Shown here: positions 1-15,074 of the stretch, one piece after another
Layout: each line of letters opens with the position of its first letter
How positions within the stretch are numbered: the first letter of the stretch is position 1
Assembly: GCA_021810145.1 (NCBI GenBank)
Contig: JAJZJL010000001.1
Location: 23,045-87,044, forward strand
Source: Planctomycetota bacterium
Lineage (GTDB): Bacteria; Planctomycetota; Phycisphaerae; WQYP01
DNA length: 64,000 bases
Direction of reading: 5' to 3'
Translations under genes and position numbers: made by a program
Notes under the pieces: generated by a model
Seen by the model: only the letters and a program-made list of their open reading frames with translations
The model's database searches: none
What the model was told of the DNA's origin: nothing

Positions 1-120
1 CTCTTTCACCAGCCCCAGCAGGATATGCTCGGTGCCGATGTATTCGTGGTTAAATCTCTGGGCCTCCTGATTAGCCAGAGCCATGACCTTACGGGCGCGA
101 TCTGTAAAACGTTCGTACAT
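1..120 (-). CDS. clpC: ATP-dependent Clp protease ATP-binding subunit ClpC, N-terminal (Clp_N) fragment; 5' partial, gene continues beyond window start
   Basis: Reverse-complement of nt 1-120 translates [40 protein letters not shown], the canonical ClpC/ClpA N-domain opening; ATG at 118-120. Confidence 0.6.
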
Positions 121-626
121 ATATACTCCTGGGGAGCCATCCGCACCAACCGCGGAAATCTGCAACCCGGTGAATTCTACGGATAGCAGACCACTATAAT
201 CAAGTAACAGGGAGCACAAAACTCAAAAAAGCAGCGATTCACAACAATTATTATCGGCAAAATGCGAAATCAACGTGAGATTTCCCTGCTCTTGGGCCGA
301 AGGTTTTGCCTGCAACCGCCCGGATGCGTGCCGCTTTTCGCGAATCACATGATAAATGCTCCACGAAAGACCGCCGCCCCGCATCCCGATTGCGCTCGCC
401 GAATGCAATTGATGCCGCCCGCTTTTTTGTCCGCAAAACCTTCCGCGCCGCGTCCCGCCAATCAGGACATTGCAGCTTTGCTTTGACACGTACCCGGCCA
501 CACTTGCATGGCACGTCAAATGGTGGGATACTACTGAATTATCGCCACCGGGGGCAGAAGGCCACCGGGTACAGGCGAAGGTTTTAGATGTACTGGTTTT
601 TTGAAGGTAATCAAAGGAGCACATAA

Positions 627-899
627 GTGGCACATTCCCTCTCGGCCAAGAAACGAATTCGCCAGAACGCCAAACGTCGTTTGCGCAACCGCGATCGCAA
701 GAAATCCGTTCGCGTGGAAATCAAGAAAGTCACCGGCGCTTTGGCGAAGAAGGATGTGACCGAAAGCCAGACTGCCGTGAAACATGCCATCAAAATTCTC
801 GACCGCATGGCCTCACGAAAAACCCTGCATCCCAACACCGTGGCCCGCCGCAAAAGCAGCATGATGCGCAAGCTCAATGCGCTGAAAACCGGTAAATGA
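627..899 (+). CDS. rpsT: 30S ribosomal protein S20
   Basis: GTG start with AAAGGAG RBS 8 nt upstream; MAHSLSAKKRIRQNAKRRLRNR... matches the S20 family; stop overlaps the next ATG (ATGA). Confidence 0.9.
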   Translation: MAHSLSAKKRIRQNAKRRLRNRDRKKSVRVEIKKVTGALAKKDVTESQTAVKHAIKILDRMASRKTLHPNTVARRKSSMMRKLNALKTGK

Positions 900-1501
900 A
901 CAATGATCTTCCAGATCGGCTCATGGTCCCCGCAGTTCCGGGCCTGGAAGAAAGTTATGTTTCTCGCGCCGGATTAAAGCTCAGTGCGGCACTGCGCACG
1001 TTTGCTCTTGACGTTTCCAACCTTATCGCCGCCGACCTCGGAAGCAATGTTGGCGGGTTTGTTGATTGTCTGCTCCGCAGGGGTGCCGCCAAGGTATATT
1101 CCATTGACACCGCCTACGGTGTTCTGGCCTGGACGCTGCGTAAAGATCCGCGCGTTGTGGTCATGGAACGCCAGAATGCTCTGCACACTGAACTACCCGA
1201 GCGTGTAGACCTTGTCACCATTGACACCGGCTGGACAAAACAGATTACCATTCTCCCGGCCGCCCGAAAACTCCTGAAACCGACAGGCCTGATTGTTACG
1301 CTTATTAAGCCTCACTACGAATCAAAAATCGCCAAAACCCAACGCGGCGTGCTGACACCAGAACAATCGCGCACAGAATTAAGCCGTGTGATCAATGAAA
1401 TTCAACACTCCGGTTGGACCATTAAAGCCATTGTCCAAAGCCCGATTGTCGGACAAAGCGGCAATATGGAATTCCTGGCACTGCTTAACGCTGAGGATTA
1501 A
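896..1501 (+). CDS. tlyA: TlyA-family FtsJ-like rRNA 2'-O-methyltransferase, without the N-terminal S4 domain
   Basis: SRAGLKL...DLGSNVGGFVDCLLRRGAAKVYSIDTAYGVLAW...RVVVMERQN is the TlyA/FtsJ SAM-binding core. Confidence 0.7.
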   Translation: MNNDLPDRLMVPAVPGLEESYVSRAGLKLSAALRTFALDVSNLIAADLGSNVGGFVDCLLRRGAAKVYSIDTAYGVLAWTLRKDPRVVVMERQNALHTELPERVDLVTIDTGWTKQITILPAARKLLKPTGLIVTLIKPHYESKIAKTQRGVLTPEQSRTELSRVINEIQHSGWTIKAIVQSPIVGQSGNMEFLALLNAED

Positions 1502-1898
1502 GCTTTTCTGACCTGTTGATGCCAATGGCGTACAAGACTTCACACGCCGGTTCCTGGGCGCGGCGACGCCATCGCGGAAAGCCGGGGAAACCCATCAACA
1601 TGCTGATTCAGAAACGCGCAAAGCCGGTATGGACTCGCGGGCGGCATAATGCAATATTTTTCCGGGCTTTGTCACGTTCGATTCCATGTTATTGCAATTC
1701 GGTCAATCAGCGCTTGGACGCGGGTGTGCCATCGGCCAGTTGTACATAACAAATCAGCCAGGGGCGAATGTTGGCAAGGAACGCCGACGATCTGCACCAC
1801 AATCATGAGTCTGACCGGAAATACCGGCGCGAAAGGATGTGCAATTATTTACAGCGAGAAAGCGGATTATCCATGTTCTGCGGCAAAAATGGTTATCG

Positions 1899-3929
1899 TT
1901 AACCCGCACGCAGGGAGGCTTGGAATCGATCCGCCAGCAGCGTAAGAATCGATGCAACCTGCTGATCGACCTGTTGTGATCGCAAGGTGGATTCGGGATC
2001 ACGAAATACCAGACTCAGTGTTACGCTCTTCTTGCCTGATCCGACTTGCGCGTTGCGGAACGTGCCGACAAATTCAACCCCTTCCAGAAATGGCAGATCA
2101 ATGCCATTGATGGCTGCGGAAATATCCGCCCAGCGAACAGCGTTGGCCACCACAATCGATAAATCCCGCTGGATCGATGGAAAGCGCGGCAAGGCCGCCG
2201 CCCGGCGAACCGGGTTGAATGCGGCGATCAGTTTTTCCAGATCCAATTCCGCCGCCGCTGCTGCATGACGAAGATCATAAAATTTCATCACCTCCGGCGC
2301 AATGCTTCCCACGCAACCAATATCCGTCGGGGTCTGATTGATCAGCATCACGCAGCGGCCGGCAATGCCGGAAGAAAAGCCGGGGGCATCTTCGGGCTTG
2401 ATGACCAGACGCGCCGCGGGATTTAAGCGTTGCACCAATTCCCGCACGGTGCCCAGCACGAGTGATAATTCGTCGGCAATCAACGCAATACGGCGTTGTT
2501 CCGTCGGCACTTCAGCGCCTGCCGCTTCCTGCCAGAATACGCTGCAATATTCAAAAAGCATGGCATTGGCGGTGCCGTTATTCTGATTTAAAGCCCGTGC
2601 GCGCAGCAGCCCGGTCAATATCGATGGACGCAGGGCATTTTCCGCTTTGCGCACCAGTTCGCTTACCTGCACCGCAACGGCACCCTGCGGCAGAAATTGC
2701 CGCGCTTCGGCTTGATCCACAAAACTGTGCGTAATGGCTTGCGAAAATCCGCAGGCGCGCAGCGTACTTTCCATGGCACCAACGGCCGCAGCCCGGTTGT
2801 CCGCCGGAGGAACCCGATGCGAAATAATACTGCGCACCGGTACGCGGCCGTAGCCCCACAGCCGCACCACTTCCTCAATTAAATCAATTTCCCGGTAAAT
2901 ATCCGACCGGAAACTCGGCACCTGACAGGCAATCGCATCACCTTTGAGTTCCGGCGAAAATCCCAGCCGGCGGAGAATATCCAGCACATCATCCAGCGGC
3001 ACCTGCACGCCAAGAATAGTCTCAATGCGCCCGGGTCGCACCGAAACCGGAACAGGATCGGCTTTGATACTGCCTGCGGAAACACAGCCCGGTGCCACTT
3101 GCCCGCCCGCGACTTCCAGAATCAGTGCCGCGGCTCGGCACGATGCATATTCCGCCATGGCCGGATCAATGCCGCGTTCAAAACGGAATGAAGAATCGCT
3201 GAACAGCGTCAGCGCCCGGGCGGTGGAACGAATGGATAACGGGTTAAATCGTGCCGATTCAAGCACAATATCCACCGTGGATGACGTCACTTCGCTGGTT
3301 TGCCCCCCCATCACACCCGCAATGGCCAACGGGCCGACCGCATCACCGATGGTCAGCATGGTATCATTGAGTTTATAGCTGCGGCCATCAATGGCGGTGA
3401 TGGTTTCGCCATCGGCCGCGGTATCCACAAGAATACGCTGATCATTGATTTTCCGGGCATCAAAAGCGTGCAGCGGCTGACCGGTTTCCATAAGCACAAA
3501 ATTGGTGACATCAACCACATTGTTAACACTGCGCAAGCCGATGGATTCCAGGGCATCGCGCAACCATTGCGGAGACGGGCCGACTTTCACGTTGCGGATC
3601 ACACGGGCGGAATAATAGGAACACAAGTCCGGCACAAGAATTTTTACCGCCAGACCCGCCGGTTCACCGGATTCAACGAGCGTCACTTCCGGCATGGTGA
3701 ACGTGAGTTTGAACAAAGCGGCCAATTCCCGCGCCAGGCCGATGTGGCTGAAGCAATCCGTGCGGTTACTGGTAACTTCCACGTCCAGCACGTCCGTGCC
3801 GTTGGATTGATAAACATTCTCAACCACAAGCCCGGCGTGAATCAGAGCTTCTTGAGCGGCGGCGGCGGAGGGAACGGAATCAAGATATCGGGAAATCCAG
3901 TTCAGGGCAATTTTCATGAGCCATTCCAA
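1899..3929 (-). CDS. pheT: phenylalanine--tRNA ligase beta subunit
   Basis: 676-aa ORF opening MKIALNWISRYL with the B3/4, B5 and catalytic-like region typical of PheT. Confidence 0.85.
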   Translation of the reverse strand: MEWLMKIALNWISRYLDSVPSAAAAQEALIHAGLVVENVYQSNGTDVLDVEVTSNRTDCFSHIGLARELAALFKLTFTMPEVTLVESGEPAGLAVKILVPDLCSYYSARVIRNVKVGPSPQWLRDALESIGLRSVNNVVDVTNFVLMETGQPLHAFDARKINDQRILVDTAADGETITAIDGRSYKLNDTMLTIGDAVGPLAIAGVMGGQTSEVTSSTVDIVLESARFNPLSIRSTARALTLFSDSSFRFERGIDPAMAEYASCRAAALILEVAGGQVAPGCVSAGSIKADPVPVSVRPGRIETILGVQVPLDDVLDILRRLGFSPELKGDAIACQVPSFRSDIYREIDLIEEVVRLWGYGRVPVRSIISHRVPPADNRAAAVGAMESTLRACGFSQAITHSFVDQAEARQFLPQGAVAVQVSELVRKAENALRPSILTGLLRARALNQNNGTANAMLFEYCSVFWQEAAGAEVPTEQRRIALIADELSLVLGTVRELVQRLNPAARLVIKPEDAPGFSSGIAGRCVMLINQTPTDIGCVGSIAPEVMKFYDLRHAAAAAELDLEKLIAAFNPVRRAAALPRFPSIQRDLSIVVANAVRWADISAAINGIDLPFLEGVEFVGTFRNAQVGSGKKSVTLSLVFRDPESTLRSQQVDQQVASILTLLADRFQASLRAG

Positions 3930-3935
3930 GCATGG

Positions 3936-4463
3936 TTATGAGGACTGACGGGAAATGACCGGATAGTTTTCGCGTTCACCCAAACCGGTAACCGGATAAT
4001 CCTTGCGCAAAGGGTGCGACGTAAAGCTGTCCCAGGTGAGAATGCGGCGCAAATCCGGATGACCGGTAAACCGGATGCCGAACATATCAAAGGCTTCCCG
4101 TTCCAGCCATTCCGCACCGGCGTAAAGCGGAACCAGCGAAGGAATAATTAACTCAATTTCTTCAACAAATACGCGTACAATCAGCCGTGGCGTGCCTTTT
4201 TCCACACTGTTAAATACGTAAACCAGGCCAAAGCGGGGTTTATCCCAACCTGGGTAATTCAGATAATCCACGCAGGTGATATCCGCAAGCATGTCATAGC
4301 GCAGGTCCGGATCATCCCGCAAAAAGGTGATGACGTCGATAAATGCATCACGCGGAACGGAAATTTGCGTTTGTCCTCGAAAACTCGCGCCTTTCAGGCC
4401 CATATTGGGGAATTTTTCTTTCAGCCGGATAGCTGCCGGATGATCTATTGCCATAATTTTCAA
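3936..4463 (-). CDS. nuoC: NADH-quinone oxidoreductase subunit C (30 kDa subunit), stand-alone
   Basis: DITCVDYLNYP...RFGLVYVFNS...EAFDMFGIRFTGHPDLRRIL are NuoC signature blocks. Confidence 0.85.
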   Translation of the reverse strand: MKIMAIDHPAAIRLKEKFPNMGLKGASFRGQTQISVPRDAFIDVITFLRDDPDLRYDMLADITCVDYLNYPGWDKPRFGLVYVFNSVEKGTPRLIVRVFVEEIELIIPSLVPLYAGAEWLEREAFDMFGIRFTGHPDLRRILTWDSFTSHPLRKDYPVTGLGERENYPVISRQSS

Positions 4464-4759
4464 CTCCGTGAATTCCTGCGAACACTCACAAACCCCCGAG
4501 TATAGCGGCGTCCGGGCCGATTATCCATCATCCATCAACGAACAACGAGCAACGAGCAACGGCGCACGCGGTCACGATCCCCGCCCGGGACGGCGGGAAG
4601 GCGTAACGGTACGACTATCACGATCCCGCGCCATCCGTCGCACGCAACTGCGGGTGGAAACCCGCGGCCGTTTTCGCGAACGGGGTCACCGATAACATTC
4701 ACCCCGTAACCGCGGCCAACGGCGATTGCAGGCCTCCCCGATCCCCACCCACATTCAAC

Positions 4760-5590
4760 TCACATTCGGTACGCTTCCGCGGCTGTGCCGCCCATGATTC
4801 GATCCTGCTGCGCTGCGGAAAGCGGAGCGATAAAATCCTTGACCGCTTTTACCCACTGCTCATACGAGCACGCCAGAAGGCAAACCGGCCAATCGGTTCC
4901 AAACATGAGCCGTTGCGGGCCAAAGGCATGAAGAACCACATCCAGATAGGGCTTAATATCGGCAGGTGTCCAATGGGCGTGGTCCGCTTCGGTCACAACA
5001 CCGGAGAGCTTGCAGTACACATTGGCTCTCTGCGCCAGTTCGGCCATGTGCTTATCCCAGGGGGCAAGAATACGGCCCTTGATCCGCGGCTTGGCGATAT
5101 GATCGACCACAAATATCTGCTCCGGATGCCGATCCACAAACGCAAGGGTCTGGGGCAGGTGCTTTTCAAAAATCAGAATGTCGTACGCCAGGTTAAAGCG
5201 CCGCAATGTTTCAATGCCACGGTTAAAATCCGCGCGCAGCATATAGTTATCATCCGGTTCATCATGCAGCACATGGCGCAGAGCCTTGAGCTTCTTATAC
5301 GCGCTAAAGCGTTCAAGCTGGGCTTGAATATCCGGTGCGGTCAACGGCAACCAGCCGACAACGCCACGCATAAATTCATGCTGTTGCGCCAATTCCAGCA
5401 GCCATCGCGTTTCCTCAACTGATTGCCGGGCCTGCACGGTAACAACCCCATCAATGCCAGCGGCGGTAATGCGGGCATGCAGATCCGCGGGCATAAAATT
5501 TCTCCGCAGAGCCTCCATGCCGGCACCGATCCAGGCATATTCTTCCGGGCGGTATTGCCAGAAGTGGTGATGAGCATCAATTTTCAGCAT
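4760..5590 (-). CDS. amidohydrolase-2 (TIM-barrel metal-dependent hydrolase, PF04909-like)
   Basis: MLKIDAHHHFWQY N-terminus and overall TIM-barrel amidohydrolase pattern. Confidence 0.6.
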   Translation of the reverse strand: MLKIDAHHHFWQYRPEEYAWIGAGMEALRRNFMPADLHARITAAGIDGVVTVQARQSVEETRWLLELAQQHEFMRGVVGWLPLTAPDIQAQLERFSAYKKLKALRHVLHDEPDDNYMLRADFNRGIETLRRFNLAYDILIFEKHLPQTLAFVDRHPEQIFVVDHIAKPRIKGRILAPWDKHMAELAQRANVYCKLSGVVTEADHAHWTPADIKPYLDVVLHAFGPQRLMFGTDWPVCLLACSYEQWVKAVKDFIAPLSAAQQDRIMGGTAAEAYRM

Positions 5591-5616
5591 AAATCTCCAC
5601 AGAAGTGTTGGGCCAT

Positions 5617-6801
5617 TCAGGATGCATGCGTGGCCGCTGGTCCCAGAAAGGGTGTAAGCGGGGAAATATCGGGATGCGGGCGGGCACCTTGTTCAATAAG
5701 ATGTTCAACGGCAATTTTCGCCAGTGTCCGGGAAATGCGGTCCCACTGCGTTTTCGGATTATTCAAAAACCGATGATAATGCTGCAGCGACGCATAAAGT
5801 GTGCGATCACGCAAAATTCCCCACGGCAAGGCCGATCCGGCATCATGCAGTAATTTGGCCACAGCAAAATCCGCATGCGGGTTTACCGGCGCGGAAGCCA
5901 GAAGCTTTTGAATTTGCGCCGGTACGCTTTTCGGCCAGCGGCGGACAAGTTCCCGGCGCACCAGCGGCTCATTCTGAATAACCAGGGCATAGAGATAAAT
6001 CGGCGTTGCGGCGGAAACATCACCCTTGATAAGCAGATGATACTGCTGATCCAGATAATCCATCATCGCTACGCTCTGGCTGGTCAGAGCGCGGGTATTG
6101 CTGATCTGTGCCATCAGCACCGGATTGCGCCGCACGGGCAGTGTTTCTTCAATCACCAGCAGACGCACGGTGCGGGCGGCGGCGGCCACCTGGGCGCAGC
6201 GCAGAAGCCGGAGTGTCAGTTGCACATCGGCCCGTTCCGCCAGGGCGGCAAAGTGTTCGCGATCCTGGGGCGGGGTTGCCCCCAGATAAGCCAGAAGCTG
6301 GCTCATGGTCCAAATCGGGCCGAGTTCGACAATATTATCCGGTGAAGCCAGCGTCATATACTGGGCCAGCGCCCGCTGGGCCACCGGTGAACCGGCACGG
6401 GAGCGGTAGGTCAGGGCGAAGGCTTTAATATCCAGCAGGCGGGCAAGACCATGATGCGGGGTTTGTCTGGCCTTATCCAATAATACATTGGCCAGCGCGA
6501 TCTTATCGGAAAGCCGATGCCGCATGGCGGAAAGAATCTGCGGGGCGTATTTCTTTTCATAACGCCGCCAGTCATTGGCGGAATAAAGCGGCGGAAAGCG
6601 CCCGGGGGCGATCGATGGCACGCTCTGGTCGAGAGTTAGATCCGGCCACAGATTTGAAACGGGAATCGCCGGAGGCAATAGCGGATTATTCGCCAGCGAA
6701 TCACCGGAAGCGGGCATTGGAGCAGCGGCCGCAGAAACGGTTCCGGCCCAGCCGAGGCAGGCCAATATCACAAAAACGCCTACGCGAAAACAATATCTCA
6801 T
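5617..6801 (-). CDS. secreted hypothetical protein with signal peptide (MRYCFRVGVFVILACLGWAGTVSAAAAP); alternative upstream start at 6831
   Basis: Long ORF with hydrophobic N-terminal signal; no recognisable catalytic motif. Confidence 0.5.
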   Translation of the reverse strand: MRYCFRVGVFVILACLGWAGTVSAAAAPMPASGDSLANNPLLPPAIPVSNLWPDLTLDQSVPSIAPGRFPPLYSANDWRRYEKKYAPQILSAMRHRLSDKIALANVLLDKARQTPHHGLARLLDIKAFALTYRSRAGSPVAQRALAQYMTLASPDNIVELGPIWTMSQLLAYLGATPPQDREHFAALAERADVQLTLRLLRCAQVAAAARTVRLLVIEETLPVRRNPVLMAQISNTRALTSQSVAMMDYLDQQYHLLIKGDVSAATPIYLYALVIQNEPLVRRELVRRWPKSVPAQIQKLLASAPVNPHADFAVAKLLHDAGSALPWGILRDRTLYASLQHYHRFLNNPKTQWDRISRTLAKIAVEHLIEQGARPHPDISPLTPFLGPAATHAS

Positions 6802-6904
6802 AAAGTCCTGATATTCGCACCAGCCGGACAATTCCCTGTTATTATGCGATTGCCGCCACGGATAGCAAGCCGCGCGGAGAACGGGATGGTCAGTAGCGTC
6901 AATA

Positions 6905-6945
6905 TATTCAGTATTAGCAGTGTTAGCAGTATTATCAGTAGAGTC
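6905..6945. repeat. four or more copies of an imperfect 9-bp tandem repeat (cagtattag / cagtgttag / cagtattat / cagtagagt)
   Basis: Read directly from the sequence; lies in the divergent intergenic region between the secreted-protein gene and the small ORF/ART pair. Confidence 0.7.
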
Positions 6946-6984
6946 AGAGGCTGGGTTGAGACATGGATGTCGAAATCCCGATGG

Positions 6985-7037
6985 TTATGGGATCACGTGA
7001 TCGGGGAATCTGGAATACGGAATCTGGAATCTGGAAT
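6985..7037. repeat. palindrome TCCCGAT-N8-GATCACGTGATC-GGGGA followed by four copies of a 7-bp tandem repeat TGGAATC (one variant TGGAATAC)
   Basis: Read directly from the sequence at 6985-7037. Confidence 0.7.
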
Positions 7038-7098
7038 CGTGGTGCGCGGGCTTGGGCGCTGTATAATTCGCTTTGGAATTGTTATTCGGGAATGAGCC

Positions 7099-7251
7099 AT
7101 GACGGTTGATGAAATTGTTAAGCAGCACGTGAAAGCGTCGCAGAAGTATCGGAAGTCCATCAAGGGCTCGCCGGAGAAAGCCCGCAAATTTCTGATTAGC
7201 GCGGGCATTCTGGATAAAAACGGCAAACGACTGGCCAGGATTTACCGCTGA
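7099..7251 (+). CDS. small 50-aa protein (MTVDEIVKQHVKASQKYRKSIKGSPEKARKFLISAGILDKNGKRLARIYR), not in the supplied ORF track; candidate antitoxin or partner of the downstream ART
   Basis: ATG at 7099 preceded by an in-frame TGA; TGA stop at 7249-7251, only 3 nt before the ATG of the PARP-like gene (translational coupling); basic lysine-rich peptide. Confidence 0.4.
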   Translation: MTVDEIVKQHVKASQKYRKSIKGSPEKARKFLISAGILDKNGKRLARIYR

Positions 7252-7254
7252 ATC

Positions 7255-7845
7255 ATGCCGCCGACACTCCCCGCATTTGTTCTCGGTTACCACGGATGTG
7301 ATAAATCAGTGGCGGACGCCCTTCTTACTGGTGCAGCCAATCATCTACATTCAAGCCGCAACGAGTATGATTGGCTGGGCCACGGGATATATTTCTGGGA
7401 AGATAGTCCCCAGCGGGCGCTGGATTACGCCCGGCAGCAAATGTCGCGCGCGGGGAGCAAGTCTAATATCCGTGATCCTGCCGTCGTAGGAGCGGTAATC
7501 GATTTAGGGAATTGCCTAAATCTACTTGACGTACAATATATCCGGATTGTCCGCGCTGGCTTTATTGATCTACAAAGCTCGGTTCAAAACGCTGGCGGGG
7601 CCATGCCCGTTAACCGAACACCGGCGGGCAGCACTGAAAAATTACTCCGGGCCTTGGATTGTGCGGTCATTAACACCATTCATGCAAGGCGGGAGGAGGA
7701 CAAGCTTCAACCATTTGATTCCGTCCGCGCGGCGTTTATTGAGGGGAATCCGATCTACGAAGGCGGCGGCTTCTATGAAAAAACGCACATCCAAGTGTGC
7801 GTGCGCGACACTCAAAAGATCAGGGGCTATTTCCGGCCAATCTAG
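7255..7845 (+). CDS. PARP-like (diphtheria-toxin-type H-Y-[E] class) ADP-ribosyltransferase domain protein, 196 aa
   Basis: LGYHGCDKSVADALL...(33 aa)...GHGIYFWEDS aligns with the PARP/tankyrase HGS...GxGIYFA NAD-binding motifs at near-identical spacing; C-terminal FYEKTHIQVCV is a candidate third-motif strand. Confidence 0.55.
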   Translation: MPPTLPAFVLGYHGCDKSVADALLTGAANHLHSSRNEYDWLGHGIYFWEDSPQRALDYARQQMSRAGSKSNIRDPAVVGAVIDLGNCLNLLDVQYIRIVRAGFIDLQSSVQNAGGAMPVNRTPAGSTEKLLRALDCAVINTIHARREEDKLQPFDSVRAAFIEGNPIYEGGGFYEKTHIQVCVRDTQKIRGYFRPI

Positions 7846-8237
7846 GGTTCTCACTACTGCGTTCGGTACAACACGGGGGTGGCAAGCCATCTGGTTTACG
7901 CTTCCGAGAAAACTCGGGACAACGTAAACAATGCGTGACCCATCTCAAGTGAATCCGATCTGGTCGAAATCGCCAGAGCGACCCGTGTGTCGGCAGCACA
8001 TTCAGCAGTGGCAGGATTCTCAATCTATCGAGCACGCCCCGCGCGCCGGGATCTTGGGCGGTGGTGCGTGGCGCGATGCGCCGGAGCGATTGCGCAGCTA
8101 AACGCGTGCTGAGAGCTGCAGGTTGCTCGGTAACGAGAGCGCCTGGCAACGCGAGCATGGGGGCGCTCCTGGCCGACCGGTTCCATGCGGGAGCACCCGG
8201 TGAAATCGGCTTTCCGCCCCACCCCGCTTGTACCTTC

Positions 8238-8960
8238 TCAACGCTTGTGCTTGGCTATCGCGTCGTTGATCTTCAGCCAGAGGCCAGGATACTGCTCCAG
8301 ATTTTTCTCCGTTACATATTGGCTCCGCGGGGCATTCACAATCGGCGCGGGTTTTCTTCCCTTGGAGCCTTTTCCCGGCAGGCTCTTTAGCTCGGGCACC
8401 AACGATTGCCATTCCTCTCTTGATCGCAAAAGCAGCACAACGCAGTTCCTTTTGATTGCCTGCTCCACCAACCAGCCCGAGTAATCTTGCGAAGCGCAAA
8501 ACTTCTGGTCTGGATGCCCAGTGGACACGGCCGAGTGATACGGATGCCATTGGATGACGCAAACCGCTCTCGCCACGGCCTCGTTGCCGTGTTTTTCAGT
8601 TAAAGTCCTCAGCCGCCGGCTCCAATATTCTCCGCCGCAGGTTTTGCTGAACCGTGGATCAAGCAAATAAAATGGATACTTCGACGGCCGGTGCAACATG
8701 CTATCCTTGCAGGCTTTGCGGAATTTGTCGCTTTTGTAGTGAAACAGGTCGGGTTTCTGGAACCCGGGATTCAGGCTCAGAAGTATGACACTTGCGGTAA
8801 GCGGGTTTCCTACATACGGCACCGGCAAAATCTCATGGCGAATCGTTGAGGATTTTGCCCCACGCCGACGTAGCTTATCATTGAGCCTTTCAACAGCGTC
8901 CCAATCCTCTTTCAGCACGTACGGTTCTCTTGGGGGCAGGCCTTTCCAGGGATTATTCAT
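8238..8960 (-). CDS. hypothetical protein with uracil-DNA-glycosylase-superfamily-like motifs (MUG/SMUG-like VILLSLNPGF and WHPYHS); start taken at MNNPWKG
   Basis: ILPVPYVGNPLTASVILLSLNPGF resembles UDG motif 1 (hhhhG[IM]NPG) and VIQWHPYHSAV resembles motif 2 (HPSP); spacing about 100 aa. Confidence 0.4.
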   Translation of the reverse strand: MNNPWKGLPPREPYVLKEDWDAVERLNDKLRRRGAKSSTIRHEILPVPYVGNPLTASVILLSLNPGFQKPDLFHYKSDKFRKACKDSMLHRPSKYPFYLLDPRFSKTCGGEYWSRRLRTLTEKHGNEAVARAVCVIQWHPYHSAVSTGHPDQKFCASQDYSGWLVEQAIKRNCVVLLLRSREEWQSLVPELKSLPGKGSKGRKPAPIVNAPRSQYVTEKNLEQYPGLWLKINDAIAKHKR

Positions 8961-9046
8961 CGTTGGACTCCACAATCGTTTACCACATGACTTAAATAAA
9001 GTAGTGCAAGTCACTCTGGCAGTCAAATGATACGCGATCAGCTCGG

Positions 9047-9874
9047 TTGCAGCATTCGGCCTCGCGCGCGATGATCCAATTCATGGCAACACGTAAACAA
9101 TGGACACACGATGACCTGCTGGTGGCGTTCCGGCTTTATTGCCGCACGCCCTTCGGGCGGCTGCACCGGCTGAACCCGGAAATCATCAAACTCTCAGAGT
9201 TGATGGGACGCACACCATCGTCGGTGGGAATGAAGGCCTGTAATTTCGCCAGCCTGGACCCGGTTCAGCAAGCCCGGCAAATCAAGGGCCTCGGAAACGT
9301 CAGCCGTGATGACCGACAACTTTGGGAAGCATTTCAAGAAAATGCGGAAGCCACAGCCGCCGAAGCGGAAGCCGCCTATGCACGGCTCGTTGGGAACCAA
9401 ACGCCGCCCGCCGAAAATGAATTAGCTGCCGACGCCGAACTCGTGCCGCCAACCGGCCCGACGGAAGAATTGCGTACGGTTCGCGCCCGGCGCGTGCAGG
9501 GATTTTTCCGCGCGGCGGTACTGGCCAGCTATAATTTTCGATGTGCGATATCCGGAATCGCCCTTCCGGAACTACTCAATGCGAGTCACATCATACCTTG
9601 GCAGAAAGACACGAAACGCCGCGCTGATCCGCGCAACGGAATTGCCCTGAACGCCCTTTACGACCGGGCATTTGATCGCGGCTTAATTACATTCGATGAA
9701 TCGTTCCGGTTGGTTCTCTCCGCGCGGCTGAGGGCTAAGGCTAAAAGCCAGAGCGTGCCGGAGCAACTAAAACACTGGTTCTACACACTGGAGGGGACGA
9801 AGATAAATCTCCCCAGACGCTTCACCCCCGATCCAGACGCATTGGCATTTCACCGCGAGACAATTTTTCGTTGA
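9047..9874 (+). CDS. HNH endonuclease (PF13391/HNH_2-like, WTxxELLxAxxLY N-domain plus C-terminal HNH)
   Basis: WTHDDLLVAFRLYCRTPFGRLHRLNPEIIKLSELMGRTPSSVGMKACNFASLDP N-domain and FRCAISGI...NASHIIPW...NGIALNALYDRAFDRGLITF C-terminal nuclease motif. Confidence 0.7.
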   Translation: MQHSASRAMIQFMATRKQWTHDDLLVAFRLYCRTPFGRLHRLNPEIIKLSELMGRTPSSVGMKACNFASLDPVQQARQIKGLGNVSRDDRQLWEAFQENAEATAAEAEAAYARLVGNQTPPAENELAADAELVPPTGPTEELRTVRARRVQGFFRAAVLASYNFRCAISGIALPELLNASHIIPWQKDTKRRADPRNGIALNALYDRAFDRGLITFDESFRLVLSARLRAKAKSQSVPEQLKHWFYTLEGTKINLPRRFTPDPDALAFHRETIFR

Positions 9875-10015
9875 TGCGGCCGGGCGAACGGCGGAGCTGC
9901 GGGAGCCGCCCGTGGCGCGCGTTCAAAGGCTCGACGCTCCAGGATTCCCCGTTGGCCAACCTACCGGCAGAAAAAGGGTTGGACGCATAAATGCTAATGT
10001 GTGCAAAACACACGC

Positions 10016-10060
10016 GTGAGGGCGAAGCAATAAATGCGGGCTGGGTACCCTCACTTTTTT
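10016..10060 (+). terminator. candidate rho-independent terminator: GTGAGGG...CCCTCAC stem followed by TTTTTT
   Basis: Stem arms at 10016-10022 and 10048-10054, T6 at 10055-10060; sits between the convergent HNH and PIN-like genes. Confidence 0.45.
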
Positions 10061-10073
10061 ATTGCGCATGATC

Positions 10074-10628
10074 CTATGGCCCATCGGTCATTCCCGCGCC
10101 GCCGAGCTTTTCCTGAAATCCTTTTTTCGTCCACTCTTCCCGGTATTGTAGCGTGAATTTGCGCTGCAGTTTCCGCCCTGACCCTATCCGCTGAAGTATT
10201 TCCTCAAGTGAAATGCCCTGCTCCGCCCGGCTAAGATTTCCCAGAACACGGAATACGATTTTATCCGCGGAACAGATTTGGCACTCATCGGATTGTCGAA
10301 GCAGGTACGCCAGAGATTCCGTCTCGCCGGGGTCAAGTTTTTCAAAATATCCGGGTGAAAATCTGGCGCGAAGGCCGCTGATATCGGTTGGTGTAAGGCT
10401 GAACACGTTAATGGCACGGGATTCGGTGAACGCGGACAGATTAATGTCGTGGCGGTTGCCCTCGGCATCTTCGAAGAATTGGGCCTCATCAATGACCGTC
10501 TGCGCAAGGTGTATATCACATGCGGCAACGATGCGATCCCACAATCCATGGCGCGATATTTCGATTATGACATTGGCATCAAACAGAAGAAACCTGAACT
10601 TCTTCACCGTTCGGAACCTCCTGTTCAA
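10074..10628 (-). CDS. DUF4411/PIN-like nuclease-domain protein, partner of the upstream HTH-ImmA regulator
   Basis: FRFLLFDANVIIE acidic PIN-like N-terminus; overlaps the upstream ImmA-family gene by about 30-50 nt (co-operonic); DUF4411 is habitually linked to COG2856 proteins. Confidence 0.5.
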   Translation of the reverse strand: MNRRFRTVKKFRFLLFDANVIIEISRHGLWDRIVAACDIHLAQTVIDEAQFFEDAEGNRHDINLSAFTESRAINVFSLTPTDISGLRARFSPGYFEKLDPGETESLAYLLRQSDECQICSADKIVFRVLGNLSRAEQGISLEEILQRIGSGRKLQRKFTLQYREEWTKKGFQEKLGGAGMTDGP

Positions 10629-11694
10629 TGAAGCGCATGGCTTGCTGCCGTGAAATATTCAGATACTCCGCGAAGCGGCCGATCGCCATTTCGCCGCGGC
10701 GCATGGCCCTGACTGCCAGCGCACGGTAGCGTGCCGGCCACGGATGAAGGGGCTTGCGGTCCTCACGATCCTCAAGCAACGGCGACAGTGTTCTGGCCCT
10801 TTCGATATCCCGTCTGGTTTGATCGGCGCCGGCGTGCCCACGGCCGTACAAAATATGCATGCGCCACAGGACAGAATCCACTGATACGTCGAACTCGCGC
10901 GCAACGTCGTGTAACGACTCAATTGTTATTTTGTCACTATGTGTGCGGGCACTGATGGCGGAGCGGAATGGATCAGCGGGAAGCAAAAGGTTGGCCGCGA
11001 AGCATGTGGCCAACTTTTCCTCCCACTCGCGGGTAATTATTTGCTCCCCAGTGGTTGGATGAAATAGCTGCCAGGTCAGCAGATGAAACAGCTCATGCGC
11101 CAGATCATGGTTACGTCGCCATCGGGTATTTTGAGAATTCAGCAGAATGGCCGCACCAAGGGAATCCGTGACGGTCGCCGCCGCGGTACCGGAAGGTTCA
11201 AAACTCAGGTGAAAAATCTTCACCCCGCAGACTTCCTCAAGCGTAGCCAACAGGGACAGGCCGGGGCGGTCGCCCAGTTGCAATTCACAGCGAACGCGCT
11301 TGGCCAATTCTTCGGCTTGTGCGTACGAATAAGTTGCGGGATCGCCGGTGGCACAGGGCAGGCTGATTGGCGCAGATTCGTCACACCATATTTCGAGGTT
11401 ATGGTATTGCTCACAGAGGCGGAGGAATTGAACCTCAATTTCCGCCGCATTCTTCTCCGGCCGTTCGCGCCACAATACTGTTGGCTGGACTTCCAATGGG
11501 CCTTCAGTAAGAAAGAAAGCGACCGAGCGTTTGCAGGCGTCGGCCAATTTGCGCAATTGGCTCAGGCTCGGCTCCCGCTTTCCATTCTCAAATTCCGAAA
11601 GCGATGATTCACCAATACCGGTCCTTTCTCTAACCTGCGCCAGCGAAAGGTTGGCTCGTTGTCGTGCGTACTTAATACGGTCGTGAATTGCCAT
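10579..11694 (-). CDS. XRE-family HTH transcriptional regulator fused to an ImmA/IrrE (COG2856) zinc metallopeptidase domain
   Basis: N-terminal IKYARQRANLSLAQVRERTGIGESSLSEFENGKREPSLSQLRKLADAC helix-turn-helix; HDLAHELFHLL contains the HExxH zinc motif; FAANLLLP is the ImmA family C-motif. Confidence 0.8.
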   Translation of the reverse strand: MAIHDRIKYARQRANLSLAQVRERTGIGESSLSEFENGKREPSLSQLRKLADACKRSVAFFLTEGPLEVQPTVLWRERPEKNAAEIEVQFLRLCEQYHNLEIWCDESAPISLPCATGDPATYSYAQAEELAKRVRCELQLGDRPGLSLLATLEEVCGVKIFHLSFEPSGTAAATVTDSLGAAILLNSQNTRWRRNHDLAHELFHLLTWQLFHPTTGEQIITREWEEKLATCFAANLLLPADPFRSAISARTHSDKITIESLHDVAREFDVSVDSVLWRMHILYGRGHAGADQTRRDIERARTLSPLLEDREDRKPLHPWPARYRALAVRAMRRGEMAIGRFAEYLNISRQQAMRFIEQEVPNGEEVQVSSV

Positions 11695-11999
11695 AACCGC
11701 TCCTGTGCCTGTCCAATCTTACTTCCATTTCACAGAATAATTATACGCTATAGTTTGTGATATGCAATCATAATATTCTATATTACAGAACATTTTCGAT
11801 ATTACAATCTTTTAATTCGCATTATGCAAATTTACGCGGCGGATCAGGTTCACCTTTCTTACTTCGCCAATGTACCCTGGGCGATGCGTTCCAGACTCAA
11901 TTGTGGCCAAAAATATCAGCAGGCTTACCGGCCAGGTACTTTGGAATCCAAATCACCGGTAACCGTTGTTGGACTTCCCCGCGGATACACGCTGCGGGG

Positions 12000-14900
12000 T
12001 CAGGTGAATTTTGCCCAGCGGGCGGCCAGGGTGGGCAGGATGATCAGGTTCAGGAGGGTGGACGTAAACAGGCCGCCGACGATGACCTGGGCTAACGGTC
12101 CTTCGATTTCCCGGCCCGGAGCACCGGAACCCAGGGCCAGCGGCAGCAGGCCCAGTGCGGCTACCAGAGCGGTCATTAAAATCGCCGGCAGGCGATCAAC
12201 CGCGCCTTCTATGGATGTTTCAATATTCCAGGTTCTGTTTTCACGCGCTACCAGGTGCTGATAATGGGACAGGAGCATAATGGAATTGCGCAGGGTAATG
12301 CCAAAGAGCGTGATAAACCCCACCAGAGCGCCCAGCGACAATACCCCCCCGCTCACGAACGCCGCCAGCACGCCGCCCACCAGTGCCAGCGGCAGGTTGA
12401 TCAACAGCAGCAGCACGTTGTTGATGTTTCTCAGCACAATAAACAGCAAAAGCAAGATGCCAACCAGCGCAATGCCGGAATGCACCAGCAGGTCGTGTTG
12501 CGCTTTGACCGCGGCCTGAGCCGAGCCGGTGAAATTGACCAGCACTCCGGCGGGAATATGAAGGCTGGCAATGGCGTGCCGGGCCGCTTTGACAAATTGC
12601 CCGGCGGTTGTACTTTTCAGATGAATGTTAATGCTCTGCGCACGCTGGCCGTTGATATGGGAAATGCGGTAAAAGCCGCGACCTTCATATATTCGCACCA
12701 CGTCGGAAAGCGGAATCCAAGTGCCGCCGGGGGTGTGGATAGGAAGTTTGCGGATCAGGGAAACACGATGGGCAAATTGCGGCGTCATGGTAACCACCAC
12801 GGGCCAGATACGTGTGCCATGATAGATATGTCCCACCGTGCGGCCGCGGATGAGCATGTGGACGCGGGCCAGCACGGCCAGCGGAGATAAACCCCAGCGC
12901 CGGAGTTGTCTGCGGCGCAACCGCAACTGAATTTCCGGCGCGTTCCACGCCGTCTGCGGGGCCACGCTGCGCGCACCGGGAAGCTTCCGCAGGCAGGCCG
13001 TAATCATGGTTGAGGCTTTTTCAATGGCGGCAAAATGATTGCCGATCACCTGCACCGCCACCGGCGCGCCGGAGCCGGAAAGCGTTTCATTGATGCGCTC
13101 GGATAAAACCGTATTGTAATACAGCAACACGCCGGGGAATTTCCTGATCAGCCGCGCCATATCCGCACGAAATTTCCGGGCCTGCCGAGAGGAAAGCGAT
13201 TTTATGCGAATAAGATATTCACTGTATTGCGGCCCGAGAACATCGCCGGCAAGATTGGATCTGCCGGAGCGCTGTTCCACTTCCTGAATATAGGGAATCC
13301 GGCGTAAATCCGCAGTAACACGATTACCAATGGCAATGGATTGACTCAGTGAAGACCCCGCCGTCAGAACCAGGTGCACCACATAATTGCGTTCATTGAG
13401 GCGCGGAAAAAATTCAGTTTTCAGGCTCGGCAGCAGTATCAATCCAGCGAGCGTAACCATTGCCACCAATGCGATAACCGCTTTTCGCCAGCGTTCCACA
13501 AAAGTCAGCAGCCGCCGATACGCGGTTTTGATATGGCTGGTCAGCCAGGCGTCGTGGCGGCTTACGGCCACCTGGGGTAATAAAGTCATACACAGCGCGG
13601 GAGTCAGTGTCAGGGCCAGAATCAGCGAGGATATGACCGCGGCAATGTAGGCCACACCCAGCGGAGCAAAGAACCGCCCCGCCAGACCGCCGAGGCCAAA
13701 AATCGGCAGAAACACCAGAATAACGGCAAAGGTGGCGAACACGACAGCGCTTCGCACTTCCAGCGATGCATGCAGGATCACAGCCAGCGCATGGCGCGGC
13801 ACTTCCGCCAGCGCGTTGATGCGCAGGCGGCGCGTAATGTTTTCCACATCAATGACCGCATCATCAACAACTTCACCAATGGCCACAGCCAATCCGCCCA
13901 TGGTCATGGTGTTAATCGTATCGCCAAGATGAATCAGAATCGCAATGGCCGCCAGCAGAGAAAGCGGAATGGCCAGGCAGGAAATAAGACTGGTGCGCCA
14001 ATCGCCAAGAAACAGCGCCAGCACCAGAATAACCAGTCCGGCACCAATCAGCAGCGAATCAATGAGATTGTGCAGGGCAACGGTGATAAAATCGGCGCTT
14101 TGCAGAATTTTTCCATGCAGAACAATGCCCTGCTGGGCCAACAGCGGTTGCAGGGAATTCAACGCTTTCGTTACGCCGGCACTTACGCGCAGCAGGTTCG
14201 AGCCATACGCCTGTCCGATCATCAGCAGCACGCCGGGCTTTTGCATGATGGAAACCGCGCCAACCTGCGGCAAGTGGCTCAAGCGGATATGGGCCACATC
14301 GGCCAGCGTGATAACCTGCGTGCCATGCACCGCCACAGTTGTTTCACCGAGTTGTTTTAACGATTGAATTTGCCCATGCGCCCGCAGGGTCATATCCTGA
14401 TTGGGTGTGGTAATAAACCCCGCTCCCATCAGGCCGGTGGCCCCGCGCGCCGCGGCAAGCACCTGTTGCACGGTTAAATGGTATTGAATCAACCGGGCCG
14501 GAATGACTTCGATGCGGTAATCTTTCTGCAGGCCGCCATAAATAGCCACCTCGGATACGCCGTGTACGGCCAGAAGTCGCGGTTGCATAACCCAATCGGC
14601 AACGGTGCGCAAGCGGCGGAGGTCATTGGTTTTGCTGGTAATGCCAACCACCGTAACCCAGCGAACGGAACTGCTCAGCGGCATAAGCACGGGCGTATCA
14701 ACCGTGGGCGGCAGGGTTCCGGCCACCTGTGCCAGGCGCTGCGAAACCGCCTGTTGATCGCGGTAAATATCTGATCCGCTGGGAAACAGCACCTTAACAA
14801 TGGATATGCCCTGCAGAGAATTGGAAAATGTTTTTTCCGCACCGACGCCACCGGCCAGCGCCTGTTCAATGGGCGTGGTAACAAGTTTTTCCACCTGACG

Positions 14901-15074
14901 CGGACTGTATCCGGGGGCAAGCGTCTTGATTTTTAATTGCGGCTGAATGAAATTCGGATAAACATCATAGCGGGCGCGGGCAATGGAATATACGCCATAG
15001 CCCATAAGAATACAGGCCAGGGCAATAATAATGCCCCGAAAATGCAGAGCAAAGTTTACAATCCGTTTAAGCAT
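12000..15074 (-). CDS. czcA: heavy-metal/cation RND efflux pump, inner-membrane permease (CzcA/CusA family)
   Basis: 1024 aa with the 12-TM RND topology and CzcA-like periplasmic loops. Confidence 0.85.
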   Translation of the reverse strand: MLKRIVNFALHFRGIIIALACILMGYGVYSIARARYDVYPNFIQPQLKIKTLAPGYSPRQVEKLVTTPIEQALAGGVGAEKTFSNSLQGISIVKVLFPSGSDIYRDQQAVSQRLAQVAGTLPPTVDTPVLMPLSSSVRWVTVVGITSKTNDLRRLRTVADWVMQPRLLAVHGVSEVAIYGGLQKDYRIEVIPARLIQYHLTVQQVLAAARGATGLMGAGFITTPNQDMTLRAHGQIQSLKQLGETTVAVHGTQVITLADVAHIRLSHLPQVGAVSIMQKPGVLLMIGQAYGSNLLRVSAGVTKALNSLQPLLAQQGIVLHGKILQSADFITVALHNLIDSLLIGAGLVILVLALFLGDWRTSLISCLAIPLSLLAAIAILIHLGDTINTMTMGGLAVAIGEVVDDAVIDVENITRRLRINALAEVPRHALAVILHASLEVRSAVVFATFAVILVFLPIFGLGGLAGRFFAPLGVAYIAAVISSLILALTLTPALCMTLLPQVAVSRHDAWLTSHIKTAYRRLLTFVERWRKAVIALVAMVTLAGLILLPSLKTEFFPRLNERNYVVHLVLTAGSSLSQSIAIGNRVTADLRRIPYIQEVEQRSGRSNLAGDVLGPQYSEYLIRIKSLSSRQARKFRADMARLIRKFPGVLLYYNTVLSERINETLSGSGAPVAVQVIGNHFAAIEKASTMITACLRKLPGARSVAPQTAWNAPEIQLRLRRRQLRRWGLSPLAVLARVHMLIRGRTVGHIYHGTRIWPVVVTMTPQFAHRVSLIRKLPIHTPGGTWIPLSDVVRIYEGRGFYRISHINGQRAQSINIHLKSTTAGQFVKAARHAIASLHIPAGVLVNFTGSAQAAVKAQHDLLVHSGIALVGILLLLFIVLRNINNVLLLLINLPLALVGGVLAAFVSGGVLSLGALVGFITLFGITLRNSIMLLSHYQHLVARENRTWNIETSIEGAVDRLPAILMTALVAALGLLPLALGSGAPGREIEGPLAQVIVGGLFTSTLLNLIILPTLAARWAKFT

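Follow-up and report, generated by a model that had tools for sequence, protein, structure and literature searches.

The glycosylases Brig1, Brig2 and Brig3, which have the uracil-DNA glycosylase (UDG) fold, are experimentally demonstrated antiviral enzymes that excise modified bases (PMC11078745; 10.1101/2025.10.29.685425; 10.64898/2026.02.25.707755). The system CmdTAC, also named PD-T4-9, has as its first gene that of an ADP-ribosyltransferase (ART) toxin, CmdT, which ADP-ribosylates mRNA (10.1101/2022.05.12.491691; PMC11618068), and antitoxins of the ImmA type are found paired with varied toxins, PIN-like toxins among them (PMC10440598). In this study, we have explored a stretch of 64,000 nucleotides from a planctomycete (contig JAJZJL010000001.1 of assembly GCA_021810145.1; the whole stretch is called the window below) and, within it, an islet of 5.1 kb (window 6870-11999) lying between the gene of a secreted-type protein and czcA. 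The islet encodes an ART-fold protein with a 50-aa partner (p50), a UDG-like protein, an HNH nuclease, and a protein that fuses a helix-turn-helix (HTH) domain to an M78 metallopeptidase, followed by a 177-aa partner. Our investigations indicate that it is a lineage-specific 5.1-kb insertion of a Phycisphaerales-type planctomycete. Taking our reading as a whole, we consider it probable that this insertion is a small islet of the defence or conflict kind, in which four autonomous conflict modules form a mosaic, and not a single system.

An occupied and an empty site

Synteny is the decisive evidence that this site varies. Scanning metagenomes with the secreted protein brought up the relatives used for the comparison. 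One of them (locus L103, 73-85% amino-acid identity) is devoid of islet genes at this site: about 180 bp separate the stop codon of czcA from the start of the secreted-protein gene. The homology of L103 to the window stops at, or resumes from, position 6869, which is the left boundary of the islet. In a closer relative (L102/L104, 89% identity), the site holds glycosyltransferase-methyltransferase, rplM/rpsI and class I tRNA synthetase genes instead. Because the site is empty in the former and has a different content in the latter, we count the islet as a variable genomic island. The original prediction, made from the letters of the window alone, had proposed to judge the block by its variability among close relatives, and the result supports it. 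On the czcA side, aligning the intergenic region to that of L103 gave a score not above that of shuffled sequence, and for this reason the right boundary was placed at the czcA stop codon. The site provides a tidy occupied/empty pair of one locus, with a left boundary defined within a few bases. A contig scan based on the neighbouring amidohydrolase found a single syntenic relative, whose contig ends inside the secreted-protein gene and is hence uninformative.

Within the species, the block is 99.7-100% identical across six complete contigs from different samples. It had been suggested that the islet may be an old, fixed acquisition; this identity bears out that it is fixed, whereas its age is a matter that composition cannot judge. 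A further same-species contig (L008, 4.9 kb, from another sample, SRR13188939) has its position 1 at window 6870, precisely the left boundary of the islet, which hints that the assembly graph branches there and could mean that there are variants with and without the islet.

The modules of the islet recur separately on plasmids, on viral contigs and in other islands, and it is because the four of them occur separately elsewhere that we read the islet as a mosaic. They had been described as units of the kind that populates defence islands or the cargo of mobile elements. This description agrees with the PADLOC matches of the HNH nuclease (1.2e-88) and of the HTH-M78 protein (RmrA, 4.3e-28), with a weak PADLOC match of the ART-fold protein to PD-T4-9_A (CmdT) and with a Brig1-related NCBIfam match of the UDG-like protein.

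Gene content and order are those described originally, and so are the flanks, with the amidohydrolase and nuoC on one side and czc efflux on the other (Table 1). The left flank comprises nuoC (Complex1_30kDa), the amidohydrolase (PF04909) and pheT, and the right flank an RND efflux operon with czcA. Exact copies of the amidohydrolase are found on contigs of metagenome-assembled genomes (GCA_027428715.1 and others), and the labels of the closest relatives in the species collection read Phycisphaerales or Phycisphaerae. As a separate observation, L103 also has no amidohydrolase gene separating the secreted-protein gene from nuoC (window 4760-5590; L103 3026-3291), a second insertion/deletion difference immediately beside the islet.

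Table 1. Features of the islet and its immediate neighbours (window coordinates; ORF, open reading frame)
Feature	Position	Strand	Remark
Secreted-type protein, 394/404 aa	5617-6831	-	conserved left flank gene
69-aa ORF, doubtful	6886-7095	+	called in some assemblies
Left junction and sequence upstream of the ART operon	6870-7098	+	tandem arrays; end of L103 homology
50-aa basic ART partner (p50), putative antitoxin/regulator	7099-7251	+	conserved pairing with the ART gene
196-aa ART-fold protein (putative H-Y-E type), putative toxin/effector	7255-7845	+	
Spacer of 392 bp between the convergent ART and UDG-like genes	7846-8237	.	61.7% GC
240-aa UDG-superfamily protein, putative DNA glycosylase, distant Brig1 relative	8238-8960	-	
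267-aa HNH_2 restriction-type endonuclease, divergent from the UDG-like gene	9071-9874	+	PF13391, PADLOC
177-aa partner of the HTH-M78 protein, putative toxin/effector	10074-10607	-	conserved overlapping pair
371-aa fusion of XRE-type HTH and M78 (ImmA/IrrE) metallopeptidase, RmrA-like, putative repressor-antitoxin	10579-11694	-	
Promoter/operator-like region of the HTH-M78 operon; right end of the islet	11695-11999	-	43.6% GC, direct repeats
czcA (ACR_tran), RND efflux operon	12000-15074	-	right flank

The modules beside their closest described relatives

In the comparisons below, folds, domain memberships and conserved pairings are given as we observed them, and from them we infer every biochemical activity and defence role that we propose for the islet genes. 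The labels that the original prediction had attached to these genes (an ART pair, a UDG-like protein, an HNH nuclease and an XRE-HTH/ImmA peptidase) agree with what we found; its label for the 177-aa protein does not, as discussed further on.

The 240-aa protein has the alpha/beta fold of the UDG superfamily. Like Brig1, Brig2 and Brig3, it combines this fold with an intact N-P-G type motif in a single-gene unit placed among defence-type genes, and the Brig1 model NF047634 matches it (39.5 bits, E 4e-10, residues 55-171 of a 262-aa ORF) and, weakly, all 38 members of its family that we examined (best E-value 8.5e-16). The cut-off of this model is 230 bits, and we have rejected the protein as a Brig1 equivalog. 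It differs from the described enzymes in the weakness of this score and in coming from a separate, much larger and uncharacterised family. The size of this family depends on the search: a word-indexed search found 6 relatives, against 3,005 cluster representatives (clusters at 50% identity) in an exhaustive profile search, 740 of them at E <= 1e-30. The family is without a Pfam model; the Pfam UDG family (PF03167) does not match the window protein and matches one of the 38 members at 0.051. Across these 38 sequences, P65 and Y141 are invariant, and N64, G66, P140 and S143 are kept in at least 90%, which defines the motifs LNPG and PYHS. Judged by position and pattern, LNPG resembles the catalytic motif of MUG/TDG/SMUG-type enzymes and PYHS would replace motif B. 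Sequence searches of the PDB gave no relative, and Foldseek against the PDB returned no Brig3 entry. A scan of viral contigs with a narrow alignment of the family yielded one locus. Homologues adjoin an SLFN-type helicase and an SDH protease in another island (L095). Elsewhere (L182, 929-4200), genes with REase-ARP and NOV_C nuclease domains form a co-oriented cluster that ends with a distant member of the family, whose gene overlaps a 333-aa gene. By analogy with the described glycosylases, the window protein would excise a modified pyrimidine from invading DNA and leave abasic sites.

A further difference from Brig1, Brig2 and Brig3 is that the UDG-like gene has its promoter region, which is bidirectional, in common with the HNH nuclease gene. 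The 267-aa product of the latter matches PF13391 (1.2e-13, 51.2 bits for a cut-off of 21), the PADLOC HNH model PDLC04132 over its full length and an HNH model of REBASE type (4e-33). NF045808 and the Type IV enzyme VcaM4I (6yex, 4e-13), which its HNH part resembles, align to this part only. With the HNH_2 enzymes, whether of the VcaM4I/ScoMcrA-type Type IV or of the AlwI/HphI group, it shares the catalytic domain and the full-length PADLOC and REBASE-type matches, but it differs from them in that neither a reader domain of the SRA, EVE or SBD kind nor an adjacent methyltransferase was detected. A part of L095 matches the divergent UDG-HNH cassette at 74% DNA identity, intergenic region included. 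This locus (1-7700) is a related mosaic island, which also holds a p50/ART pair at 237-980 (74% and 68% identity). The HNH homologue is split there, with an N-terminal ORF of 143 aa beside the UDG gene and C-terminal remnants at 2709-2906 and 1107-1271, and between the pieces the SLFN-type helicase, the SDH-protease gene and others are inserted. The window nuclease could act as a solitary HNH_2 endonuclease for modification-dependent or otherwise non-self-directed cleavage of DNA, with its promoter region in common with that of the UDG-like gene.

The 196-aa protein has the core fold of the PARP/diphtheria-toxin-like ARTs. It matches no Pfam or NCBIfam family, searches of the PDB with the single sequence or a profile gave nothing useful, and none of its 3,547 homologues is named. 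An alignment of 29 members shows the invariant motifs HGCD, GIYFWE, LDCA, FxEG and HxQ; the invariant residues H13 (in HGCD), Y46 (in GIYFWE), E163 and Q180 fall in predicted strands, and E163 or Q180 is a candidate for the catalytic position. The protein encoded immediately upstream, p50, has no Pfam hit and shows a conserved C-terminal motif (A..FL..AGI....G.L...Y). The two genes are 3 nt apart in the window and overlap by 4 nt on the conjugative plasmid pRL8, where they lie beside tra genes. A small gene homologous to that of p50 abuts the ART gene in L090, L091, L095 and pRL8, which are unrelated contexts, and a small upstream ORF abuts the ART start in 60 of 68 ART loci (64 of the 68 being IMG/VR viral contigs), 44 of these ORFs matching the p50 profile (E <= 1e-3) by way of this motif. 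Small size, a common orientation and close spacing of the two genes, and a pairing that persists in unrelated contexts, make up the layout of a type II toxin-antitoxin (TA) operon, and we read the pair, from its sequences, as a conserved two-gene, TA-like module. In this module the ART would be toxic and p50, translationally coupled to it, would neutralise or regulate it. Once released, the ART might use NAD+ to ADP-ribosylate a target, nucleic acid or protein, so that growth or phage replication would stop.

The closest described system to this pair is CmdTAC, which it resembles in an ART fold of the putative H-Y-[EDQ] type, in a size near that of CmdT and in forming a small TA-like operon. 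The PADLOC model PD-T4-9_A covers residues 9-66 of the window protein, with its H and Y motifs (6.8e-6), and matches all 29 family members (best E-value 3.5e-8). The similarity is, however, partial and weak (23.8 bits), and the organisation differs. Here the partner is a basic protein of 50 aa encoded upstream, whereas CmdTAC has the downstream CmdA, and a SecB-like chaperone is the third gene of CmdTAC and is absent from the islet. Downstream of the ART gene lies a stretch of 392 bp without a called gene, and domain searches matched no islet protein to a chaperone family. Because both the downstream antitoxin and the SecB-like chaperone are absent here, we have ruled out that the pair is CmdTAC.

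The 371-aa protein carries HTH_3 (3e-15) and Peptidase_M78 (1e-10), the combination that defines the RosmerTA antitoxin RmrA. It matches 16 RmrA models of PADLOC, as well as capP and capH, the NCBIfam spr1629 repressor/antitoxin model (1e-18, under its cut-off) and the transcriptional regulators of phrog_2439 (6e-34). As in RosmerTA, a small co-transcribed partner follows, its gene overlapping the 3' end of the 371-aa gene by 29 nt, and the pair is met in mobile and defence contexts. The pair, with its overlap unchanged, is found at 55-58% identity in L098 and L100, in another chromosomal context, and distantly in L109. In L098 (4299-7870), it sits between a phage-type integrase and a divergent operon of DUF1580 and primase-polymerase, which is the position of the repressor of an integrated mobile element. 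In L109 (NZ_CP029177.1 59249-60884, a plasmid of Acidibrevibacterium), the distant pair stands between a Type IIL MmeI enzyme and the DISARM gene drmA, with the stop codon of the partner overlapping the drmA start; by analogy with CapH/CapP, this pair may regulate the neighbouring defence system. There are differences as well: in contrast to CapH/CapP, a single fusion protein contains both the HTH and the peptidase here, and unlike a RosmerTA toxin the 177-aa partner matches no RmrT model and no Pfam family.

This partner had been labelled a DUF4411 PIN-like protein, and in this label the original prediction fails. Not one of 28 family members matches DUF4411 (PF14367) or PIN in Pfam, even at E <= 10. 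Comparing the family by hhalign with the PIN partners of distant M78 homologues aligned 23 N-terminal residues only, with a probability of 56%, and hmmsearch of the family against these partner proteins was not significant; in the PIN/DUF4411 searches, the only match was the distant partner homologue on the Acidibrevibacterium plasmid. With no link from Pfam, PADLOC, hhalign or hmmsearch, we have rejected membership in DUF4411. None of the 447 homologues has a Pfam domain, and sequence searches of the PDB gave nothing useful for the 177-aa protein. Three acidic residues of this family never vary, namely D10 (in the strand motif LLLDANVVIE), E95 and E97, and two others, E41 and D115, are kept in at least 90%. 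A PIN-like fold is nevertheless possible, because LLLDANVVIE aligns with the PIN partners, acidic residues are conserved, and antitoxins of the ImmA type pair with PIN-like toxins.

The region upstream of the HTH-M78 gene had been described as AT-rich with a repeated motif in front of the regulator, and this is what we find. The motif ATATTACA occurs there twice (11780-11787 and 11799-11806), 19 nt apart, inside 15-nt direct repeats (11773-11787 and 11792-11806), and 5 copies of it are present in the whole window where 0.94 are expected. The region also holds 20-nt repeats (11723-11742 and 11776-11795) and, ahead of the gene, a promoter-like site on the minus strand (11799-11770). It is plausible from this arrangement that the direct repeats are operators. 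The HTH-M78 repressor/antitoxin would then bind the repeats of its own promoter and restrain the 177-aa effector until a trigger, for example infection or DNA damage, activates the peptidase.

At the other end of the islet, two tandem arrays lie upstream of the p50 gene, at 6909-6940 (CAGTATTAG, 9 nt in 3.6 copies) and 7005-7038 (GGAATCT in 4.9 copies). The 69-aa ORF sits over these repeats and has a homologue in none of the fetched loci, and we regard it as probably spurious. The spacer between the ART and UDG-like genes holds a called gene in none of six same-species contigs. A structured RNA was dropped as an explanation for it: Rfam at E <= 1 gave nothing in the spacer, a gathering scan of the whole window returned only a distant tRNA-Leu, and the folding z-scores of the two strands (-1.4 and -1.1) are not significant. 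Its likeness to L095 is limited to about 45 nt directly 3' of the UDG stop codon, and the spacer may derive from coding sequence that has decayed. Contig L007, from the same species, ends within it, at about 8140.

Weighing the readings of the islet

Several of our observations weigh against a mosaic defence islet. The composition of the islet gives no signal of foreign origin, either in GC or in tetranucleotides. The synteny argument is drawn from the loci of only two relatives. None of the four modules completes a characterised system, there being no RmrT, CmdA or SecB-like partner. The RmrT models of PADLOC, at E <= 1, match neither the 177-aa protein nor any of 27 relatives, so the toxin that defines RosmerTA was not found, and the PIN-like fold of this protein is suggested by motifs only. 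For the nuclease, no islet protein contains a methyltransferase domain, as Type II restriction-modification would require, and the N-terminal part of about 125 residues has no Pfam or NCBIfam match and no detected SRA, EVE or SBD reader. The UDG-HNH pairing occurs in one other locus only (L095), in which the HNH gene is broken, and the Brig1 match of 39.5 bits, for a cut-off of 230, covers about 120 residues only. Homologues of the ART pair are also found in housekeeping neighbourhoods, as is the case for ordinary TA modules. Finally, the searches found no integrase-type domain in the islet proteins, no tRNA in or near the block and no flanking repeats, direct or inverted, beyond short matches at chance level. 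On this last point the original prediction had likewise reported no integrase, tRNA or direct repeats.

The composition of the islet had been expected to stand out, with AT-rich flanks in a genome of about 58% GC. The window measures 54.4% GC and the islet 54.2%, which is the 49th percentile of 5.1-kb windows, and tetranucleotide usage is unremarkable. Both the value of 58% and the contrast that it implied are thus at odds with the measurements: only the two intergenic regions at the ends are AT-richer (49.4% GC on the left, 43.6% on the right), and their AT-richness is promoter-like, matching what promoter regions usually show.

One rival explanation derives the block from a mobile element that was once integrated here, such as a prophage, a satellite or an integrative and conjugative element, and of which it would be the decayed cargo or immunity end. 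The HTH-M78 protein would be the repressor of this element and the TA-like pair its addiction module, and the integration machinery would since have been lost. The classical repressor position of the HTH-M78 pair in L098/L099, between the phage-type integrase and the DUF1580/primase-polymerase operon, speaks for such an origin, as do the matches of the M78 protein to phage transcriptional-regulator PHROGs and the frequency of the ART pair on conjugative plasmids and viral contigs. However, neither an integrase nor att-like repeats nor a tRNA target was found in the block or next to it in the window, genes for structure or replication are missing there as well, and the four modules are found separately elsewhere. 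We hold this origin to be rather unlikely, and it would in any case be compatible with a defence function of the cargo.

The second rival, to which we give a similarly low probability, concerns the ART pair and would make it an addiction module of plasmids or phages, or a counter-defence effector, with p50 as its regulator, and not a host defence. In its counter-defence form, the protein would be an ART like AcrIF11, with an immune protein of the host as the target that it modifies. The occurrence of the family on 70 plasmids, of which half are conjugative, and also on 64 contigs of IMG/VR fits this, and so does the match of phrog_14664 over the full length of the family. Yet both the window and L095 have the pair in a chromosomal islet, next to other defence-type genes, its sequence links it to CmdT, which is a defence toxin, and the small gene is upstream and tightly coupled, as in type II TA operons.

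That the UDG-like protein and the HNH nuclease serve housekeeping DNA repair, with the other genes being ordinary regulators and the clustering incidental, is very improbable: although repair is the foremost role of the UDG fold, the composition of the islet equals that of the rest of the genome and the block is fixed in the sampled population, two related lineages lack the block at the equivalent position, close homologues of the UDG-like protein are very rare (the 6 of the word-indexed search), the contexts of this family are islands with nucleases and helicases, and the HNH nuclease matches restriction-type models.

Two large families without a name

Going beyond a mosaic of defence or conflict modules, two parts of the islet, the UDG-HNH cassette and the p50-ART pair, might each be an uncharacterised defence system in its own right, a suggestion that we put forward as doubtful. 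The former could be a base-excision restriction cassette, in which a hypermodified base of the phage would be taken out by the glycosylase and the nuclease would cleave the DNA at the resulting lesions or close to them. This idea comes from the recurrence of UDG-HNH, including the intergenic region, in L095 and from the distant member in a REase-ARP/NOV_C operon. The latter could be a new, chaperone-free relative of CmdTAC that would ADP-ribosylate nucleic acid.

In conclusion, the islet itself is unremarkable, as small defence islands are common, although most of its single genes are uncharacterised. Its value lies in drawing attention to two large families that have neither a name nor a Pfam model. 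One is a CmdT-related ART with an obligate partner of about 50 aa, represented by about 3,500 proteins, none of them annotated, which are encoded by plasmids, phages and chromosomes. The other is the Brig1-related family with the UDG fold, with about 3,000 clusters at 50% identity. These two families, together with the possible glycosylase-nuclease cassette, are the most interesting leads from this locus. To our knowledge, almost nothing has been tested for such immunity in Planctomycetota. If either family proves to be antiviral, immunity by base excision or by ADP-ribosylation would have a wider range than the few cases characterised so far, and would reach into Planctomycetota.

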